From an uncultured Thermococci archaeon (GTDB lineage Archaea; Methanobacteriota_B; Thermococci; Methanofastidiosales; B48-G16): a DNA stretch of 64,000 nt. Positions 2,907-52,151 of the stretch are shown piece by piece. The stretch's first letter is position 1. The number at the start of each line of letters is the position of its first letter. The notes under the pieces are model-generated. The model had not been told where the DNA came from. It was given only the letters and a program-made list of their open reading frames with translations, and did no database searches. The stretch spans positions 1 through 64,000 of the forward strand of contig CAZQQT010000003.1 in assembly GCA_964595645.1 (NCBI GenBank), in the 5' to 3' direction. A program made the position numbers and the translations under genes.

Positions 2907-2991
2907 TGCGGGGGAGGGGATTCGAACCCCCGAACTCCTACGAGAATGGATCTTGAGTCCATCGCCTTTAACCTGGCTCGGCAACCCCCGC
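2907..2991 (-). tRNA. tRNA-Leu (anticodon CAA)
   Basis: Reverse complement reads GCGGGGGTTGCCGAGCCAGGTTAAAGGCGATGGACTCAAGATCCATTCTCGTAGGAGTTCGGGGGTTCGAATCCCCTCCCCCGC. It has a 7-bp acceptor stem, anticodon stem ATGGA/TCCAT with loop CTCAAGA (anticodon CAA), a long variable arm and a GTTCGAATC T-loop. No CCA is encoded. Confidence 0.85.
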
Positions 2992-26489: not shown

Positions 26490-27074
26490 ATGGGGTTATT
26501 TTCTCGGAAACCGAAAATAGAGCAATTACGAAATAACGGGGATATTAGAGGATTGAATGAAGCGCTTGCTCATGAAGACACTATGATCAGATTTGAATCT
26601 TCTTTAGCGCTTGCAGATCTTGCTGAAAAAGGGATAGGAAGCAGTTCTTCTATACCGCCTCTCAACCGTGCACTGAATGATACAGATCCGTATGTGAGGA
26701 GCAATGCCGCTCTTACACTTGTACGGCTTGTGCAAATAGGTGTGGGAGATTCCTCGTCTATTCCGTATCTGCACAAAGTATTGCAGAATAACTATGCACA
26801 TTCGCCAGCAAACATGTATGCACGAGGATTTGCCATTGATACGCTTCGATTCTTGGCGCAGAAAGGGATAGTAGATCGTTCTTCACTTTCTGTTCTTGAT
26901 ACCGTATATAAAGAAGATCCTGAGTATGAAATAGCAAGAGCTGCTCGAAATGCCTTTAAGGAGATCCAAAAAATAATGGGATCTTCTTCCCAAGAAAAAG
27001 GCGAATGCCCGTCTTGCGGACATGAGAATCCTCCAGATTCGATGTACTGCAGTAGCTGTGGAAATAAATTGTGA
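26490..27074 (+). CDS. HEAT (PBS-lyase-like) repeat protein with C-terminal zinc ribbon
   Basis: 194 aa. Repeated DxxVRxxAAxALxxL units; C-terminal CPSCGHENPPDSMYCSSCGNKL. Confidence 0.7.
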   Translation: MGLFSRKPKIEQLRNNGDIRGLNEALAHEDTMIRFESSLALADLAEKGIGSSSSIPPLNRALNDTDPYVRSNAALTLVRLVQIGVGDSSSIPYLHKVLQNNYAHSPANMYARGFAIDTLRFLAQKGIVDRSSLSVLDTVYKEDPEYEIARAARNAFKEIQKIMGSSSQEKGECPSCGHENPPDSMYCSSCGNKL

Positions 27075-27091
27075 AAACAGAGGATTTCGCT

Positions 27092-28216
27092 ATGAAACAA
27101 TCAGATATCAGAAAAATGAGAAATAATAGAGATATTTGTGGATTAAATGCTTTAATAACTCACAACGATCTAGAAACAAGAATACAGGCTATGGTAGCGC
27201 TTGCAGATCTTGCAAAGAAAGGCATCGCAGATTCATCGTCGTTACCGTATTTGAACAATGCATTGAGCGATACAGAGGAAGGTGTACGGATCAACGCAGC
27301 GTATGTGCTTGCATCCCTCGCAGAAAATGACATCAAGGACGAATCCTCGATTGCTCCTTTGAAAAAGGCTCTCGAAGACCGCAATGTATATGTACGGATA
27401 AATGCACGAGGAGCACTGAGAAGAATGGGCGTTCAGGCGAAAAAATCCGTCCGAGATTCCATACCCCTAGGCAATCCATTGGCAGAGCTTCTAAAGAGGG
27501 CCGAAAACATAGAGAAATTAAACGTTATACTCGAAACCGGCACCGATAAAGAAAAGACCAATGCTGCCTACGCGCTTGGACAGCTTGCCGATGCTGGAAA
27601 AGGAGATAAATCCTCGATACCTCTTCTTAACAATGCATTAGAAGAGGATAACAAGTATCTCCAATCAGCAGCTGCCTACGCACTGAGTTTTCTCGCAGGG
27701 ATAGGAGTAGGCGATGTTTCCTCACTGCCATCACTGAAAAGAGTATTACAAGAAGGAGACGATTCTGCAAAGAACATGGCTGCACACGCAGTCGCAAACC
27801 TTGTCAAAATGGGCATCGTTGATACATCGCTTATCACACCTTTAAACAGAGCTCTTACCACGGGGGACGAGTCCGTACGCTCTGCATCTGCCCATGCTCT
27901 AGCTTCTCTTGCCGAAAAGCAAGTAGGTGATCCATCGTCGATCACTCCTCTCAACGCTCTTGTACAAACTGACGATCTCATGGGGAAGATATACGGAATC
28001 TACGCGATCCAGTGTCTTGCAGAAATGGGCATCGGCGATCCGTCCTCAATACCATACGTAACAGAAGCCTTAGGAGACGAAGAGGTAGCAGAATCTGCAC
28101 GAAAAGCGTGTAATGCTCTCCAAGCACTCCTTCAGAAAAAGACATGCTCAAACTGCGGAGAAAAATTCCCTATAAATTCAATATACTGTTCCAACTGCGG
28201 AAAGAAGTTACAGTGA
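27092..28216 (+). CDS. HEAT repeat protein with C-terminal zinc ribbon (larger paralog)
   Basis: About 374 aa from ATG 27092, with at least 8 HEAT-like units (D.SSIP.L..AL.D....VR..AA.AL..LA). C-terminal CSNCGEKFPINSIYCSNCGKKLQ. Stop codon of the upstream HEAT gene lies 17 nt before the start. Confidence 0.7.
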   Translation: MKQSDIRKMRNNRDICGLNALITHNDLETRIQAMVALADLAKKGIADSSSLPYLNNALSDTEEGVRINAAYVLASLAENDIKDESSIAPLKKALEDRNVYVRINARGALRRMGVQAKKSVRDSIPLGNPLAELLKRAENIEKLNVILETGTDKEKTNAAYALGQLADAGKGDKSSIPLLNNALEEDNKYLQSAAAYALSFLAGIGVGDVSSLPSLKRVLQEGDDSAKNMAAHAVANLVKMGIVDTSLITPLNRALTTGDESVRSASAHALASLAEKQVGDPSSITPLNALVQTDDLMGKIYGIYAIQCLAEMGIGDPSSIPYVTEALGDEEVAESARKACNALQALLQKKTCSNCGEKFPINSIYCSNCGKKLQ

Positions 28217-29374
28217 GTGTATTTCTTTTAGTATGGGGGGTATAGGAAGTTCTGCTTTCTCAAGACTTCGTTTGTATCCCCTCAGTGCCTGAAGACCTTG
28301 AGGTGTGAGGTACCATCGGATGGATGTAGGACGACGTGGTGCCCGCGAAGGACTGAAGATTGACTCGGCAATGGAATGGGCTGTTTTCGAAAGCGAGGAT
28401 CGTTCTTCGTTTGTTATCGTATCTCCCCACGGATGGTTGTAGTATCCTCTGTTTTTGAGGCCTCTGATTGTTACTTTTGGGAATGTTTCCTTGTATGTGA
28501 TTTCTCCCTTAATACGCTGGTACCAGTAGGAGGACTGCGTCGCATGTTGTCCATGCCAGACCTGTGCACATGTGAGGGGTAAATCTTCGACACCTGTATC
28601 AAAGTCCACCGCTCCCTTTTTCGCGAGTGCGGTAGCAACAATAAGCTCATTTTGTTTTATTTTATTGTCAATTGCGACGAGGATCGGACCTGCAGAGATA
28701 AGTACAGGCCCCGGACCGTCCCTCACCATTACTTTCACGGGGTATCCGTAGTAGGATGCAATGATCTGGGCAATCTCAGACGCACGAGAAAATATTTCCC
28801 GATGGAAAAGACATAACCCAAGGGCATGCAATTCTCGGTACGTTCCTGTGGAAAATCCTGAGAGTTCGGTGTACTCACTGAGGTATTGTATACCACCATT
28901 TTCACTGGCAAAATGAAGTGATACTTCCTGCAGCCGAAACTTCATCTTGATATACTCACGCACAATCTCCTCAAAGTCTGGAATACTCTCGAAGGAAGGA
29001 ACGTTTTTTCTCTCGGTGTATTCCCGGAGTTTTTTCATTTTGTGCTCTCGTATCTCCTTTGCAAGAGGATTAGCCTCTTTGTCTACCATTGCGTAGAGCC
29101 CTAAAAGCGTCTCTTTCATTGCAGCAACACGATCGTATACAATGTTCGTTGCACCACAGTAGTCGCAGGCAATGACTTCCTTCATATTTCCCCGGTATTC
29201 CATCGGTGCACCGCACTGCTGGCAGGTTACCAGATCGAAGATAAGCGAGGATTCCATCGTTTCAACAGTTTTCGTGGCGGCTTGCGGCGTTAATGCTGTT
29301 CCGCAGAAAGAGCAGTACTGTGAATCTGAGGGAGTTTTCGCACTGCAGTTGGGGCATACGAGTCGTTCTGCCAT
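28208..29374 (-). CDS. double zinc-ribbon protein with uncharacterised C-terminal domain (last gene of the rSAM/SPFH operon)
   Basis: Start taken at MAERLV (29374, SD gaggt 7 nt upstream). CPNCSAKTPSDSQYCSFCG and CQQCGAP ... CDYCG ribbons, then a ~300-aa domain with no recognised motif. Confidence 0.6.
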   Translation of the reverse strand: MAERLVCPNCSAKTPSDSQYCSFCGTALTPQAATKTVETMESSLIFDLVTCQQCGAPMEYRGNMKEVIACDYCGATNIVYDRVAAMKETLLGLYAMVDKEANPLAKEIREHKMKKLREYTERKNVPSFESIPDFEEIVREYIKMKFRLQEVSLHFASENGGIQYLSEYTELSGFSTGTYRELHALGLCLFHREIFSRASEIAQIIASYYGYPVKVMVRDGPGPVLISAGPILVAIDNKIKQNELIVATALAKKGAVDFDTGVEDLPLTCAQVWHGQHATQSSYWYQRIKGEITYKETFPKVTIRGLKNRGYYNHPWGDTITNEERSSLSKTAHSIAESIFSPSRAPRRPTSIRWYLTPQGLQALRGYKRSLEKAELPIPPILKEIHSL

Positions 29375-29403
29375 GTAATACCTCGATAATAAAAAAAGAA
29401 GCT

Positions 29404-30372
29404 CTAAAGTTTTTCTCCACACTCCGGACAGAATTTACTTCCCGTTGGAATCTCAGCGCCGCATTTTTTACATTTCAATTTTGTTTTCGGCATCGAAAGT
29501 TCATTCCCACAGTTGGGGCAGAACTTTGAGCTTCGTGGCACCTGATAGTTACATTTTGGGCAGATAACTGTTGCCACACCAGCACCTTGTGGCGCCAGAA
29601 GATTTGTCGCGCCCTGCATTGCATAGGGAACTGCCATGAACCCCGCACCTAATGCGGCACCACCTCCTTTCGTCTCCTTAATAGCATCTGCAAACTTTTC
29701 TGCTACTTCCTTCCCTACCAACTGTTCAGCAGTAACGCCGCGCTGTAAATAGAATAGCTTGTTTTTGTATTCGTCGGGGATTGTAACTCCTTCAATTTTT
29801 AAGTCCACCATATCGATACCGAATCTGTCAAAATCACCTCGTAGCCGCGCTTTGATAAATATTGATGTTTCTTCTGTTTGTTGGTAGACATTGTAAGATG
29901 TCTGCTCGGCGAGGTTGTCGATGAACTTCTCGATAATAAACGCTTCTACAAAGTTCCTCACATCTTCCTTGGTGAATTTCCCAAGATTTCCGACGATCTC
30001 GACAATAAACAGTTTCGGATCCTCAATCTGCACAAAACATCTCCCAAAGGCACCACAAGGCACCATGTCCCTTAGCATGACCTTCTGTTTCGTGCCGAAT
30101 TTGAACTCCACCTTCGAAGTGTTCACAAAGACTACTTCTGCGGTGAAGGGAGTTCTCCCCTGGAAGAGTATTTTATATGCGTTGAAAATCAGAGGGATGT
30201 TCATCGTTGTCAGTGTGTGTCTTCCTGGACCCAGTACATCGTACGCCTTCCCGTCTCGGAAGAAAACCGCCTGTTGATTCTCTCGTACTACCAGCTGGTC
30301 TCCCATAGTAACCTCCCCTCTGTATGCGTAGGCGAGGTCATTTTCCGTTCCTCTCCAATCGATAACTCTCAT
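29404..30372 (-). CDS. SPFH/Band-7 (Band_7_1 type) protein with C-terminal double zinc ribbon
   Basis: 322 aa. MRVIDWRGTEND ... LVVRENQQAVFFRDGKAYDVLGPGRH ... VVFVN ... fits the Band_7_1 SPFH pattern (B. subtilis YdjI-like). C-terminal CPKCNYQVPRSSKFCPNCG and CKKCGAEIPTGSKFCPECG. Confidence 0.65.
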   Translation of the reverse strand: MRVIDWRGTENDLAYAYRGEVTMGDQLVVRENQQAVFFRDGKAYDVLGPGRHTLTTMNIPLIFNAYKILFQGRTPFTAEVVFVNTSKVEFKFGTKQKVMLRDMVPCGAFGRCFVQIEDPKLFIVEIVGNLGKFTKEDVRNFVEAFIIEKFIDNLAEQTSYNVYQQTEETSIFIKARLRGDFDRFGIDMVDLKIEGVTIPDEYKNKLFYLQRGVTAEQLVGKEVAEKFADAIKETKGGGAALGAGFMAVPYAMQGATNLLAPQGAGVATVICPKCNYQVPRSSKFCPNCGNELSMPKTKLKCKKCGAEIPTGSKFCPECGEKL

Positions 30373-30836
30373 TCATTCACCTTTTCATCGCCCTCACTCA
30401 CATCCGTCATTATATCTTCTCTTTTTTCAAACTCGTCCTCTATAACTCTGAGATGTTTCAGGATGTTTTTTGGGTCTTCTCTCTCTTTTATTTCTTCAAT
30501 CCTTTTTAATATTTTCTCATCGTACTTGTAGAGTCTCTCAAGCTCTTCTTCATCAATATGTATTGGATCAAAAAATCCTGCATAGCCGTAATCTGCGTGT
30601 TCTATCTTATCGATCATCTTCTGGATCTGCTGGATGATTTCCTCGCAGTGTTTCAACTCATCCATTTCTTTGACTCCCTCTTCCATGTACTCAAAATCCT
30701 TTTTAATATACTTTAATTCGTCACATATTTTCTCTCGCAGATGTTTATCACTTTCTCTTCTCAGCTCTTTTTTCTTGTAGCCCTTAAACCCCGGTATTAA
30801 CAACTCTATTTTTTCCAATATTCTACGTTTTTCCAT
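30369..30836 (-). CDS. coiled-coil protein (possible PspA/ESCRT-III-like helper; unverified)
   Basis: 155 aa, highly charged, heptad-rich. Its last 4 nt overlap the SPFH gene start. Confidence 0.5.
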   Translation of the reverse strand: MEKRRILEKIELLIPGFKGYKKKELRRESDKHLREKICDELKYIKKDFEYMEEGVKEMDELKHCEEIIQQIQKMIDKIEHADYGYAGFFDPIHIDEEELERLYKYDEKILKRIEEIKEREDPKNILKHLRVIEDEFEKREDIMTDVSEGDEKVNE

Positions 30837-30844
30837 AAAAACAC

Positions 30845-32098
30845 CTACCTACAGTATGTATCAAGAGGACACCCGGCAGTACATTCTTTGTCTTTGTACA
30901 TCTCACACTCCTTGCAGTCCTCCGGCATGTACTCTCTCTGCCGTATGTATTTGGCCAATTTTGAGTTCCATATTACCTCCCACGGATCGGTCAGCATGTT
31001 TCCCATAGGCTCGAACCAGCTCTGACAGGGGATTACATCTCCATTTGGCTCTACGGTAACGTTGATCCGTGCAGCAGAACAGACCTTCAATCCGAGTCCG
31101 TACTCCACAGGATCGATCTTACATCGCTCTGTGGGCGTGTACCAGATCAGTTCCAGCCCGAGCTCATCACAGGTCGTCACGACTCTTTCGAGTGTCTCTT
31201 TCAGTTGCTCTACAGAAAGAGCATGTTCTCTCTTTGCTTTTCCAGAGTAAATAATGGAGTTAAATGCAACTCTCTCCAGACCTAAATCGCTCAAAAAATG
31301 GATAAAATCTTCTACATCCTTATAGTTATACTCCATCAATGTCGTGTTCGTGAGAGTGAATACAGAGGAGTCTATAGCTTTTTTGATTCCCTCCACGGTT
31401 TCTTTCCACGCATTCGCTCCGACGATTTTATTGTGGACATCTTCAAATCCCTCGATGGTAATCTGCACGTGATCGAGTTCCGCCTGTTCCAGTGCATCCA
31501 TTTGTTGTGAGAGGAGTCTTCCATTGGTGATGAGGCCGGTGACCAGTTCATTACTGTATGCTACCAAATCCACAAGATCATCCCGCAGTAACGGTTCTCC
31601 ACCGGTGAAGACGATGGCGTTACTCAGTTCAGAAATTTTTTCAATGATTACCTTCCATTTCTTTGTGCTGAGCTCCTCTTTCTCCCGTGGAGACGCTGCG
31701 TAACAGTGGATACATTTATTATTGCATCGGTACGTGAGTGCAAGATCGAACCTGTGCGGCGCCGAGAGATCATACTCCTTTGAAAAGGGAGAGATACGTT
31801 CTATATCAAGCGAAGAGAAGGGACAGAGATCTGTGGATGATGCCAGCCCAATGATATTGAAGTATACCTTCTCGTAGTCCTTTTCCACCTTTTCTTTCTC
31901 CACTGTGTATTCTTTTGTCATGATGTCCACTATCTCTTCTCTCGTGTTCTCGTCCATGATATGTTTTACATATTCTGCAGCTGTGTTGTTGAGATAGAGG
32001 ATATGAGCGCCGTTTATATTCAACACAGAGAAATCTTTTTCCTCTCGTAAGCTCAGCCGTATTTTTCCTTCTTCAAATTTTAGTGTCTTTCTACGCAT
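30845..32098 (-). CDS. radical SAM / SPASM-domain enzyme with N-terminal PqqD-like (RRE) domain
   Basis: Start MRRKTLKF at 32098 (ATGA overlap with upstream stop; SD GGAGGAGGTGG 7 nt upstream). Residues ~15-90 (SVLNINGAHILYLNNTAAEYVKHIMDENTREEIVDIMTKEYTVEKEKVEKDYEKVYFNI) resemble a PqqD/RRE winged helix. CNNKCIHC is a CX3CX2C radical SAM motif. C-terminal SPASM cysteines are C-x13-GDVIPC and CKECEMYKDKECTAGCP. Confidence 0.8.
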   Translation of the reverse strand: MRRKTLKFEEGKIRLSLREEKDFSVLNINGAHILYLNNTAAEYVKHIMDENTREEIVDIMTKEYTVEKEKVEKDYEKVYFNIIGLASSTDLCPFSSLDIERISPFSKEYDLSAPHRFDLALTYRCNNKCIHCYAASPREKEELSTKKWKVIIEKISELSNAIVFTGGEPLLRDDLVDLVAYSNELVTGLITNGRLLSQQMDALEQAELDHVQITIEGFEDVHNKIVGANAWKETVEGIKKAIDSSVFTLTNTTLMEYNYKDVEDFIHFLSDLGLERVAFNSIIYSGKAKREHALSVEQLKETLERVVTTCDELGLELIWYTPTERCKIDPVEYGLGLKVCSAARINVTVEPNGDVIPCQSWFEPMGNMLTDPWEVIWNSKLAKYIRQREYMPEDCKECEMYKDKECTAGCPLDTYCR

Positions 32099-33684
32099 CA
32101 GAATCCACCTCCTCCTGCACAGGCACACGCGCAGGATACACAGGCACACGCGCAGGCACAGGATGCACATGCACAGACACAGGCTTTCTCGGAGTGTCCC
32201 ACTTCCTTTCCCGCGATGATTCCTGCGAATGTCTTCTCACTGAGGCCCGGGTTTTTCTCAACACTTTGTTTCCCTTTGTTGAACTCCTCTGCAAACTTCT
32301 CTCCAGAGTACTCCCCCTTCGGAAGATGGTACCAGAGCCACCACGACGTGGGCGTGAAAGCGGTATCAACATCTTTAAATGTTGTTCTTGCCCGGCCGTC
32401 AAACTTCTCATCGATCATCAGCCATCCAGCCTTCTTGCCGAAGAGTCTATATTTCTCCTCAGGAGATATAGTTTTGAGTTCTCCCCAGTACGCTTCAATC
32501 TCGTCTGTATAGTATTTTTCTGTATCTTTTCTACAGTATCCCTTCATTTTTCTATTCACTGCATTATTCAGGCCCTTCAGGACCAGTTTCATACCTTTTT
32601 CATCGAATGTCCCATCCTTCTTCATCCCTTTGAGGAGGAACTGATTTTCGTAGTAGAAGGTTTTTCCTTCGAAGGTAACCTCACAACCGCAGTACTCACA
32701 GAACTCTCTTTCAGATTCTCCTGTCATAGGTGCACCGCAGTTTGGACAGTGATATGCTTTCTCTTCCTCTCGTGACGGGAGTATCTCAACTTTTACAGGG
32801 CTCCATTCCTGTATTCTTATTTTTCCTTTTTTCACCAATCCGTAGAGAAGAATGTTAATTATTTTAAAGGGATGCGCACCCAAAAGTACAGCAGCTTCAA
32901 TATTATCAAGATCCTTCCTTACACCAAGTGATTCCATATGCATTTTTGGGTCTATATACTCTTTCGCCTTTTTTGCTGCTTTGTAGATACCATAACCTAT
33001 GAATATAACAACTACTAGAATAATTGCTACACCTATGAGTATTGAAGACGTATCCGGACCGGGTTTTTCCTCCGTCACATTTGTTACGTACCCTTCCGGG
33101 AATGAGATTCCGCATCTAAATTTTTCTCCTTCTCCAAGTGTTCTTTCCCAGTAGGCAAATGCCCAGCCGTTCTCTTCATCGAAGGTGTCTGCAGGTGCCG
33201 GCTCACATCCAAGCTCGTTCAGCGTTACACCCTCGGGTGCAATTAGTTTTACCCGCAGTACTTTTACCTCTTGATAGTCCCACCAGGCAGGATAAAATTC
33301 TACCCCCACCCTCCCTTCCTCATCTTTGTATACCATTTTTGGAACAATAAGATGGATTTTCATTCGTGTGACATCGCCCGTCTCGGCAACACGGGGGAAG
33401 TAGATCTTCAATCTCGTCCCTTGTTTCTCCACATCCAGCATTCTTCCATCGGATGTGACTGTGTAATCAATAATTTCTTCCTTTGGAATTCCAAAATAGA
33501 TCCCTTGCTGAGGTCCTTCTGTCGTTTTTATCGTTAGAAAGTACCATATGTCTAGAGAAGAGTCTTTTTGTACTGTAACTTCTACATTTTCCTCTTCTAT
33601 AAGAAATTCTGGTCCATCAGCAGAAAATGCACCAAGAAACAAAAAAAATGTCAGGATAAGAACAAGTCCATAGCATTGTTTCAT
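32098..33684 (-). CDS. type I membrane protein with cytoplasmic zinc ribbon and C-terminal (Cys-Ala)n-GGGGF tail
   Basis: 528 aa from MKQCYGLVLILTFFLFLGAFSA (ATG 33684, SD aggag upstream). ~230-aa ectodomain, TM ILIGVAIILVVVIFIGYGIY, cytoplasmic region with CPNCGAPMTGESEREFCEYCGC. Tail is KACVCACASCACACACVSCACACAGGGGF, followed by a TGA that overlaps the rSAM ATG. Confidence 0.7.
   Translation of the reverse strand: MKQCYGLVLILTFFLFLGAFSADGPEFLIEEENVEVTVQKDSSLDIWYFLTIKTTEGPQQGIYFGIPKEEIIDYTVTSDGRMLDVEKQGTRLKIYFPRVAETGDVTRMKIHLIVPKMVYKDEEGRVGVEFYPAWWDYQEVKVLRVKLIAPEGVTLNELGCEPAPADTFDEENGWAFAYWERTLGEGEKFRCGISFPEGYVTNVTEEKPGPDTSSILIGVAIILVVVIFIGYGIYKAAKKAKEYIDPKMHMESLGVRKDLDNIEAAVLLGAHPFKIINILLYGLVKKGKIRIQEWSPVKVEILPSREEEKAYHCPNCGAPMTGESEREFCEYCGCEVTFEGKTFYYENQFLLKGMKKDGTFDEKGMKLVLKGLNNAVNRKMKGYCRKDTEKYYTDEIEAYWGELKTISPEEKYRLFGKKAGWLMIDEKFDGRARTTFKDVDTAFTPTSWWLWYHLPKGEYSGEKFAEEFNKGKQSVEKNPGLSEKTFAGIIAGKEVGHSEKACVCACASCACACACVSCACACAGGGGF
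32104..32115 (-). promoter_or_regulatory. Shine-Dalgarno site of the rSAM gene, embedded in the Gly codons of the upstream gene
   Basis: Minus strand reads gcaGGAGGAGGTGGAttctgATG. The GGGGF-stop codons of the upstream gene double as the SD. Confidence 0.6.
32116..32185. repeat. imperfect tandem repeat (~21-nt unit, TGT-GCN alternation) encoding the Cys-Ala tail
   Basis: Plus strand: cacaggcacacgcgcagg-ataca-caggcacacgcgcagg-cacaggatgcacatgcacagacacagg. It causes the shadow ORFs 32083..32775 (+) and the MCILCLRVCLC extension of the rSAM ORF. Confidence 0.7.
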
Positions 33685-33747
33685 GCAATCTCCTCTTTCT
33701 ATTCTCTTCATGGAGAACTTTTTAAACTTTGCCATTGTAGCGTATAT

Positions 33748-34161
33748 ATGGATGATCGTTTTTTTGTGTATATCGGGCATGAACTCGCGCATGTAAATGA
33801 TCATCTCCCGGAAAAAAAGATTTCCTTAAAAGAACTGGCAGCCCAGAAGGTGCCCCAGGTAAAAACAAAGGCCGGAGAGCACTATTTTGATCGTAAAGAC
33901 ATAAATTTCCTAAAGACCTTTGTTCCAAAGGAATTTTGGAGAAAGATATCGCTCCCATTGATAATTTTTAGAAAAAGGGAAGCGTACGCCTTTGAAGGAA
34001 ACACGTATGAATGTTTTCTCATTAAGAAATTATTGGAAGGGGAAGAGTACACCAGCGAGGCTGTGATAGAGACTGAAAGGACGTTGACGCTCTATACACC
34101 CCAGGTGACAGAATTAAAGAGAAAGTATAAAAGTCTCTTTGTGATAGGATTTAGTGTGTGA
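33748..34161 (+). CDS. hypothetical protein
   Basis: 137 aa from internal ATG 33748 (MDDRFFVYIGHELAHVNDH...). No motif recognised. Divergent from the Cys-tail gene. Confidence 0.3.
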   Translation: MDDRFFVYIGHELAHVNDHLPEKKISLKELAAQKVPQVKTKAGEHYFDRKDINFLKTFVPKEFWRKISLPLIIFRKREAYAFEGNTYECFLIKKLLEGEEYTSEAVIETERTLTLYTPQVTELKRKYKSLFVIGFSV

Positions 34162-52076: not shown

Positions 52077-52151
52077 GCTCCGGTAGTGTAGACCGGTCAA
52101 TCATTCCGGCCTTTCGAGCCGGTGACTCGGGTTCAAATCCCGGCCGGAGCA
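52077..52151 (+). tRNA. tRNA-Glu (anticodon UUC)
   Basis: GCTCCGGTAGTGTAGACCGGTCAATCATTCCGGCCTTTCGAGCCGGTGACTCGGGTTCAAATCCCGGCCGGAGCA. 7-bp acceptor stem, anticodon stem CCGGC/GCCGG with loop CTTTCGA (anticodon TTC), T-loop TTCAAAT, discriminator A, no CCA. Confidence 0.85.

Follow-up and report, generated by a model that had tools for sequence, protein, structure and literature searches.

A near-invariant Cys-rich tail on an archaeal membrane protein as the probable substrate of an adjacent radical-SAM/SPASM enzyme

The sactipeptide and ranthipeptide (SCIFF) maturases SkfB, AlbA, CteB, PapB, and Tte1186 combine a recognition element for peptides that are ribosomally synthesized and then modified post-translationally (RiPPs; the RiPP recognition element, RRE) with a radical S-adenosylmethionine (rSAM) core and a SPASM domain, and their Cys-rich substrates are encoded next to them. 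In the thioether-forming rSAM enzymes PapB and Tte1186, a Cys of the substrate ligates the auxiliary cluster (PMC10177961). Full-size and repetitive substrates have been described as well: the rSAM/SPASM enzyme QhpD puts several intra-protein Cys thioethers into QhpC, a protein that remains in a functional complex (PMC8172795), and repeat motifs are rSAM targets in the HxS repeats of HxsA (PMC13128918) and in TVGG repeats (PMC9062424). The locus described here was found in the first 64,000 nt of contig CAZQQT010000003.1 (forward strand; assembly GCA_964595645.1) from an uncultured Thermococci archaeon, a stretch that is hereafter called the window. In it, a membrane protein gene (gene A) ends in a tail in which Cys alternates with small residues, and the gene directly downstream (gene B) encodes an RRE-containing rSAM/SPASM enzyme. 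The locus had attracted attention through a prediction made from the DNA letters alone (the original prediction), which dwelt on the tandem repeat underlying the tail and on the ribosome-binding site (RBS) embedded in its end. From synteny and domain architecture, it is probable, with some room for doubt, that gene A and gene B form an uncurated enzyme-substrate pair and that the tail is cross-linked, probably via thioethers.

The tail, gene A, gene B, and the Shine-Dalgarno (SD)-like motif all lie on the minus strand of the window. Gene A is placed at 32098..33735, where a public 545-aa call has its start, within an open reading frame (ORF) of 568 codons that stays open to 33804 (32098..33804); gene A homologues begin with MKQ or MKK, which is equivalent to a start near 33684. 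The protein is built from an N-terminal signal or anchor helix, a beta-sandwich ectodomain of ~170 aa, a transmembrane (TM) helix, a cytoplasmic helical domain, and the tail. A zinc ribbon (CPNCG...CEYCG) is inserted in the cytoplasmic helical domain, before the disordered Cys-rich tail. The AlphaFold2 (AF2) model has a mean confidence (predicted local distance difference test, pLDDT) of 71, and the tail, at a pLDDT below 30, is predicted to be disordered. A Lys-rich inside flank follows the TM helix, and the tail is therefore assigned to the cytoplasm under the positive-inside rule. Pfam and NCBIfam scans of gene A gave no match, and a comparison of its profile with PDB sequences yielded nothing significant (noise from zinc ribbons, and ribophorin I at E = 0.46). 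The 3' end of the gene reads ...GHSEKA-CVCACAS-CACACACVS-CACACA-GGGGF-TGA, with the first tail Cys codon at 32179-32181 and the Phe codon at 32101-32103, and 32101-32181 translates to CVCACASCACACACVSCACACAGGGGF. This tail (32101..32181) consists of three Cys-X blocks (3 + 4 + 3 Cys) with Ala, Val, or Ser spacers, a nine-residue period, and a Gly-Gly end. The original prediction had counted ~30 codons of Cys-Ala repeat; the repeat itself is present, but it is shorter than stated, being a 22-codon Cys-X stretch followed by five terminal codons and holding ten Cys rather than some fifteen Cys-Ala pairs.

Gene B (30845..32098) encodes 417 aa, for which Pfam domains and homologue alignment indicate a PqqD-like RRE (aa 25-77), a radical-SAM core with the motif CNNKCIHC (aa 125-132), and a SPASM domain (aa 340-399). 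All three exceed the Pfam cut-offs, with 31.1 bits for PqqD (cut-off 23.4), 85.8 bits for Radical_SAM, and 43.2 bits for SPASM (cut-off 21.5), and residues 2-87 form a beta-sheet with three helices in the AF2 model, as in an RRE. The CX3CX2C motif (C125-x3-C129-x2-C132) is invariant among 12 diverse rSAM homologues, and so are seven SPASM Cys among the homologues (C326, C340, C358, C395, C398, C406, and C410). Among solved structures, SkfB and PqqE come closest by sequence, and SkfB, CteB, PqqE, and SuiB by fold. The start of gene B at MRRK agrees with the N-termini and lengths (417-420 aa) of its homologues, and it is also backed by relatives in which the rSAM ATG comes after the gene A stop (L004).

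The tail recurs, nearly invariant, in more than 150 loci from Methanofastidiosia, Theionarchaea, Bathyarchaeia, other Thermoproteota, and one Asgard metagenome-assembled genome (MAG), on proteins that are 24-76% identical. Across 127 full-length gene A homologues, mean column identity reaches 0.98 in the tail versus 0.25-0.79 elsewhere. A scan of genomes yielded 80 loci (55 from Bathyarchaeia, 9 from other Thermoproteota, one each from an Asgard and a Methanocella MAG, and others), in which gene A is only 24-30% identical to the copy in the window and the tail is the same. The motif CACACACV was one of the two search patterns of that scan, and the resulting set is biased toward the tail; the invariance was therefore re-tested on loci found through their rSAM only and on whole-protein matches. 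Among the latter, all 25 whole-protein homologues from Methanofastidiosia and Theionarchaea MAGs (38-76% identical) end in CVCACVSCACACACVSCACACA[SG]GGGF. With a Bathyarchaeia protein as query, a search for the gene A family found about 1,740 clusters (90% identity) at E <= 1e-10 among 8,000 candidates scored, and 115 of the 119 listed cluster representatives with a C-terminus show the canonical 3 + 4 + 3 layout of Cys; the first tail Cys is gone in 3 of the 119 and a nine-residue unit in one. The codons behave differently from the residues: all synonymous Cys and Ala codons occur at each tail position in the cross-locus comparison, and the nearest relatives of the window carry many synonymous differences in the tail with an unchanged number of codons. 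The tail is, on these comparisons, evidently a peptide motif and not a DNA motif. It is also among the most conserved peptide motifs of its family, tightly syntenic with an RRE-containing rSAM/SPASM maturase, an association that the original prediction had overlooked.

Some relatives depart from the canonical tail. A shorter form, (CA)3-5-G-(CA)3-GGGR with 3-5 + 3 Cys and GGC-encoded Gly, occurs in bacteria of WOR-3 type, a label taken from a source's name for rSAM cluster P0118; in the WOR-3 pair, which was found through its rSAM, the tail is CACACACAGCACACAGGGR. The loci L082, L117, L121, L136, L140, L150, and L159 make up this bacterial-type branch, in which the gene A homologue is without the first Cys block, the rSAM gene follows after a spacer of 16-90 nt with its own SD, and genes for an Era-like GTPase and a type IX secretion system adjoin. 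In several loci from Bathyarchaeia (L025, L132, L162, L109, L126, and L131), the usual stop of gene A has been lost, and 6-8 more residues are encoded (e.g., GGGVGIKGDGLKR) before a stop by which the rSAM start is overlapped or abutted. A tail-bearing ORF of 105 aa (P0149, L164) was considered as a mini-precursor and rejected as a probable chimeric assembly, as on an ENA contig of 1,139 bp it fuses the canonical tail region to an N-terminus of unrelated sequence, downstream of an ORF that, judged by eye from the sequence, is of the bacterial butyrate/acetate-kinase type. When 1.84 billion representatives were searched by phmmer with the 33-aa tail, only two matches were obtained, although composition correction suppresses such a low-complexity query, so this search does not gauge other scaffolds.

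Gene order ties the tail to the enzyme. In the genome scan, the rSAM gene lies immediately downstream of gene A in about 73 of 79 loci. A separate metagenome scan used rSAM-only patterns and is thus unbiased for the tail; among its 80 loci, one of which was too short for assessment, the tail was found directly upstream on the same strand in 75 of 79, downstream in 1, and not at all in 3. Four sequence features expected of an RRE-dependent rSAM/SPASM maturase, namely CX3CX2C, SPASM, a PqqD-like RRE, and an adjacent Cys-rich substrate candidate (75/79), are found. The rSAM orthologues are 37-82% identical and better conserved than gene A. A third component may belong to the same set. Directly upstream of gene A in 60 of the 80 genome loci lies a gene for a protein of ~115 aa with two TM helices and, at its C-terminus, a zinc ribbon (CPNCSA...C.YCG..FEVTEEPKW), which occurs in Bathyarchaeia and other Thermoproteota and often overlaps gene A (e.g., L009, 5672-6022, plus strand); neither it nor gene A is covered by a Pfam, NCBIfam, or PADLOC model. 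In the clade of the window, a similar zinc ribbon (CPNCGAP...CEYCGCEV) sits inside gene A at residues ~350-380 (about 32665-32755, minus strand), which looks like domain fusion or fission of this third component.

In the proposed mechanism, the 88-nt stretch at the end of gene A, which encodes the cytoplasmic, intrinsically disordered C-terminus of a membrane protein of wide conservation, specifies a tail that would serve as the dedicated substrate (the 'core') of the rSAM enzyme encoded immediately downstream. The RRE would dock on the region just upstream of the tail, the Cys thiolates of the tail would be presented to the auxiliary cluster, and the 5'-deoxyadenosyl radical would take a hydrogen from a neighbouring small residue. 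Thioether (C-S) cross-links would form repeatedly along the repeat, and a full-size protein would thereby gain a rigid, cross-linked or cofactor-like appendage, as a protein-tethered RiPP-like modification. We infer a Cys-directed cross-linking because the nearest structural relatives of gene B are thioether synthases and because a substrate Cys ligates the auxiliary cluster in such enzymes (PMC10177961). That the spacers Ala, Val, and Ser are invariant suggests that they matter, either as acceptors or for the fit to the active site. Variants with one nine-residue unit more or less, together with the shorter bacterial tails, suggest that the repeat modules could be handled independently of one another.

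Compared with the described systems, the kind of arrangement, an rSAM/SPASM maturase with an adjacent Cys-rich substrate, is already known, and what is unusual is the format of the substrate and the breadth of its distribution in archaea. The sactipeptide and ranthipeptide maturases, which include the closest sequence and fold matches of gene B, act on leader-core peptides of 40-60 aa, whereas the candidate substrate here is the tail of a membrane protein of ~530-550 aa (545 in the window), in which Cys alternates strictly with Ala or Val and the Asp, Thr, and Phe acceptors of known examples are lacking. QhpC, the gamma subunit of quinohemoprotein amine dehydrogenase, shows no sequence relationship to gene A; it is a soluble 9-kDa protein with Cys-Asp/Glu links and a cysteine tryptophylquinone (CTQ) cofactor, and it has no repeat. 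In HXS (HxsA, with His-Xaa-Ser repeats, matured by HxsB/HxsC), ACGX (TIGR04340), and TVGG poly-cyclopropylglycine peptides, short tandem peptide repeats are likewise targeted iteratively by an adjacent rSAM; HxsA is moreover of full size and has an additional domain (PMC13128918, PMC9062424). The chemistry of the repeats is nevertheless different, and so are the enzymes. Gene B reaches 64 bits with TIGR04340 (cut-off 400) and 63 bits with HxsC (cut-off 268). HXS is moreover a bacterial periplasmic anti-phage effector, while PADLOC revealed no defence link for genes A and B: the rSAM core gave generic viperin-fold matches only and no defence-system assignment.

Several observations weigh against a substrate role of the tail and its modification. 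Both are inferred from synteny and domain architecture only, and a membrane-anchored substrate of >500 aa is atypical for RRE-dependent maturases. Gene B stays far below every curated NCBIfam equivalog cut-off (64-123 bits versus 300-850), with 59-115 bits versus 265-850 for the specific families SkfB TIGR04403, AlbA NF012164, PqqE TIGR02109, MftC TIGR03962, ACGX TIGR04340, HxsC TIGR03977, and PapB NF047865, and its best NCBIfam models mix tetrapyrrole enzymes (NirJ2, AhbD, AhbC) with peptide maturases. The Bathyarchaeia and WOR-3 orthologues are likewise under the cut-offs of all these models. By Pfam, PqqD is found in only part of the family, with none in the rSAM of L009, although the domain is homologous family-wide and Pfam detects only some members. 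The pairing is also imperfect: the rSAM gene lies upstream of gene A in L010 and L035 and is not found within the locus in L074, L078, and L080, and the available flanks of the rSAM orthologues in L081/L090, L106, and L137 contain neither gene A nor a Cys-rich ORF. These last orthologues are ~45-48% identical to the enzyme in the window, and one of them is on a Coatesbacteria-labelled contig beside a methyltransferase gene. Finally, CxC-rich tails can simply bind metals.

This last point leads to the strongest rival explanation: the tail, in the manner of a metallothionein, would be a ligand for metals or Fe-S clusters, or a sulfur relay, without covalent modification, and the rSAM enzyme would draw clusters or sulfur from it or be only loosely linked to it. 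With metallothionein-type Cys-X-Cys tails the gene A tail shares high Cys density, CxC spacing, and disorder: it places 10 Cys in 22 residues as CxC and is predicted to be disordered and cytoplasmic. An extra zinc ribbon is always associated with it, either inside gene A (as in the window) or directly upstream (60 of 80 loci), and rSAM/SPASM proteins are themselves rich in Fe-S clusters. Metallothionein-type tails, however, would be expected to tolerate different spacers, whereas here length and spacers are fixed, with the Ala, Val, and Ser positions as invariant as the Cys, which is unexpected if only the thiolates counted. The enzyme furthermore carries a PqqD peptide-recognition domain, its nearest solved relatives are peptide cross-linkers, and the synteny with this peptide-modifying rSAM is very tight (76/79), amounting to an obligate pairing. 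On account of the spacer invariance, modification is favoured over plain metal binding, which we regard as unlikely, if still the best of the alternatives.

If the tail is indeed the rSAM substrate, the locus stands for a large, apparently uncurated enzyme-substrate family in uncultured anaerobic archaea, and the substrate would be an unusual one, a full-length membrane protein with ten strictly alternating Cys. To our knowledge, no characterised sactipeptide, ranthipeptide, or protein-thioether system has such an arrangement, and new radical chemistry or a protein-derived cofactor is therefore plausible; we also know of almost no post-translational chemistry in the archaeal lineages concerned. 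A further-reaching proposal, which we advance tentatively and hold at somewhat less than even chances, is that of an undescribed phylum-spanning two- or three-gene module that makes a new protein-tethered structure from the invariant (Cys-Ala)n tail. As judged from gene content, the module would consist of the zinc-ribbon membrane protein (or the inserted domain), the DUF2207-like membrane protein, and the dedicated RRE-rSAM-SPASM enzyme, and its range appears to take in Bathyarchaeia, other Thermoproteota, Methanofastidiosia/Theionarchaea, an Asgard MAG, and some WOR-3-type bacteria. In this structure, adjacent Cys and Ala/Val residues might be joined by a ladder of thioethers at close intervals; it might otherwise be a redox or metal cofactor derived from the protein, on the cytoplasmic side of the membrane. 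No Pfam, NCBIfam, or PADLOC model names the rSAM type of gene B. Searches of open-access full texts with the motif strings returned nothing relevant, and a description may exist in literature or resources beyond the searchable ones; a survey of RiPPs in archaea treats predicted rSAM clusters in general terms only.

The end of the tail has a second property at the DNA level. Its Gly codons contain the SD-like motif GGAGGAGGTGG (32105..32115), an 11-mer that ends 6 nt before the rSAM ATG; within it, GGAGGTG (32106-32112) ends 7 nt before the ATG, and GGAGG lies 9 nt from the start. The gene A stop (32098-32100) overlaps the rSAM ATG (32096-32098) by one base as TGATG (32096..32100), an overlap that is shared by L001-L003, L005, L006, and L008. 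SD complementarity within 5-10 nt of the start is thus found in the window together with a stop/start overlap, and the original prediction of an SD 7 nt before an overlapping ATG was correct. GGAGGTG is complementary to the conserved 3' end of 16S rRNA; the window has no 16S gene from which the anti-SD could be read, and Rfam finds no rRNA in it, only two tRNAs (2907-2991, minus strand, and 52077-52151, plus strand). The organism makes use of SDs, as an SD 5-mer is found at 10 of 49 first starts compared with 6.5% of random positions. Across the window, GGAGGTG is not enriched (8 found versus 5.0 +/- 2.1 expected), so that the evidence against chance is comparative, namely the conservation of the tail and the bias of its Gly codons.

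That the Gly codons double as the SD of the downstream gene, as had been proposed, is supported by codon usage across loci. The first invariant Gly of the tail (Gly-2) is GGA in 125 of 152 unique loci (82%), while GGA makes up 32% of the other Gly codons of gene A and 30% of the first codons in other Gly-Gly pairs. GGAGG is spelled in the tail of 133 of the 152 loci, and its distance to the rSAM start has a mode of 9-12 nt (<=12 nt in 91 loci). The choice of Gly codons is, on codon usage and spacing, consistent with dual coding, GGA-GGN being kept in most archaeal lineages. The embedded SD and the TGATG overlap would fit a translational coupling of gene A and gene B, a prediction from the sequence. 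Around the SD, the minimum free energy hairpin pairs the motif with an energy that is ordinary for the composition (z = -1.06), and a coupling hairpin is not claimed. It is unremarkable in principle for an upstream gene in an operon to carry an SD at its 3' end and for its stop to overlap the next start; here the SD comes with a synonymous-site constraint and is superimposed on an invariant Gly-Gly that is conserved across archaeal phyla. Dual coding of this type is unsurprising in kind, yet it is clean and its constraint is measurable.

The original prediction had gone further and suggested that the Gly tail is constrained by the RBS as much as by the protein. For the codon choice this stands, given the GGA bias; for the amino acids it does not. 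In bacterial-type loci, Gly-Gly is retained with GGC GGC GGN and an SD in the spacer, and the residues are therefore constrained independently of the SD. Nor does SD use fully explain the codon bias, since GGA is still at 72% where the tail GGAGG is too far from the start for such a role. The rSAM start is >20 nt away in 39 archaeal loci, some of these starts being frameshifted or mis-assigned, and 23 of the 39 have a separate SD-like site. A stronger version, in which the Gly-rich end exists mainly for the downstream RBS and the peptide is unimportant there, can point to the strong synonymous bias toward GGA-GGN spelling GGAGG and to the suitable spacing; it is nonetheless improbable, because Gly-Gly persists not only beside the separate SDs of the bacterial-type loci but also where the rSAM gene is upstream or absent (L010, L035, L074, L078, and L080).

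The nucleotide repeat is a by-product of the periodicity of the peptide. Within the imperfect tandem repeat at 32118..32156, a stretch of 18 nt occurs in two perfect copies (32118-32135 and 32139-32156) offset by 21 nt, and Tandem Repeats Finder called periods of 6, 12, 21, and 27 nt in the tail DNA, of which 27 nt scores best (2.6 copies, score 89; 21 nt: 3.0 copies, 81% matches, score 68). A unit of ~21 nt, as originally proposed, thus describes the window but not the family, where the tail has a periodicity of 27 nt or nine residues and no excess at 21 nt is seen. The 18-nt repeat is a local peculiarity: among 132 tails, the 21-nt offset is uncommon, and the longest perfect repeat is exactly 18 nt in four and longer in two. 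In most genomes the perfect repeats are short (the longest typically 9-12 nt, median about 11 nt) and the synonymous sites are scrambled between units, so that long near-perfect repeats are not kept at the DNA level.

The number of repeat units is almost always the same. All 49 strain-level sequences of the clades nearest to the window have an identical copy number (the window's own species being represented by one sequence only), and the canonical number is found in the 152 loci and in the 115 of 119 Bathyarchaeia representatives. In-frame variants are rare (about 1-5% of sequences) and come in units of 27 nt rather than 21 nt: one-unit variants were seen in 3 of about 17-20 Theionarchaea strain-level sequences and in 1 of the 119 representatives. 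P0183 and P0186, from Theionarchaea contigs of two assemblies, have exactly one 27-nt unit fewer; over 4.7 kb, their locus (L165) shares 99.4% identity with L167, which has a perfect 27-nt x2 repeat; P0202 (Theionarchaea) has one extra unit and P0235 (the Bathyarchaeia representative) one fewer. These natural alleles of plus or minus one CACACACVS unit, which in Theionarchaea lie on contigs that hardly differ otherwise, can be compared as L165 and L171 versus L167 and L168, as L166 versus L169, and in P0235. Gain or loss of a unit is thus seen at a few places in Theionarchaea and Bathyarchaeia, whereas the nearest clades are uniform. In the 27-nt register, synonymous identity within loci is modestly raised (0.458 versus 0.408 +/- 0.013, a value reached in 0 of 2000 between-locus permutations), while the 6-, 12-, and 21-nt registers show no such increase (z <= 1.7; 21 nt, z = 1.4-1.6), and concerted evolution in the 21-nt register of the original prediction was rejected as not significant. 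Taken together, the sequences indicate that 27-nt slippage or conversion happens and occasionally homogenises units, but is rare, and that selection restores the canonical number; a peptide repeat can thus be labile by mutation and still be kept at a fixed copy number. Frequent slippage that alters the repeat number between strains or cells is largely unsupported by these counts, and a contingency locus with often-shifting copy number, despite the few in-frame variants (P0183, P0186, P0202, and P0235) and the raised identity in the 27-nt register, is very improbable in view of the canonical number in nearly all sequences, the missing excess at 21 nt, and the imperfect repeats of most genomes.

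The repeat is also crossed by shadow ORFs on both strands, as originally described, namely one of 230 aa at 32083..32775 (plus strand), one of 106 aa at 32091..32411 (minus strand), and the rSAM frame itself, which stays open for 24 more codons upstream to 32170; the share of each that is owed to the repeat is only ~25 stop-free codons.

Three genes follow the rSAM gene on the minus strand (28208..30836), encoding a 155-aa protein without a Pfam match (30369-30836), an SPFH/Band-7 protein that carries a double zinc ribbon (29404-30372), and a zinc-ribbon protein of 404 aa (28208-29422). The 155-aa and SPFH genes follow the rSAM gene only in the close relatives L001, L003, and L008, and in L022, from Bathyarchaeia, they are located upstream of gene A; these two genes do not belong to the universal core of the module. 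In 28 of the 80 genome loci, all from Bathyarchaeia, the rSAM gene is followed on the same strand by a gene for a 414-aa protein that begins with a HAD-like hydrolase domain (e.g., L009, 9090-10334, plus strand), which may be a clade-specific accessory gene. Divergent from gene A, the window encodes a DUF61 protein (33568-34161, plus strand), which is also found beside gene A in L001-L003 (65-73% identity). Two adjacent HEAT-repeat proteins (26490-28216, plus strand) end in the zinc ribbons CPSCGHEN..CSSCG and CSNCGEKF..CSNCG, and it is striking how many proteins of the window that are otherwise unrelated have a C-terminal zinc ribbon.

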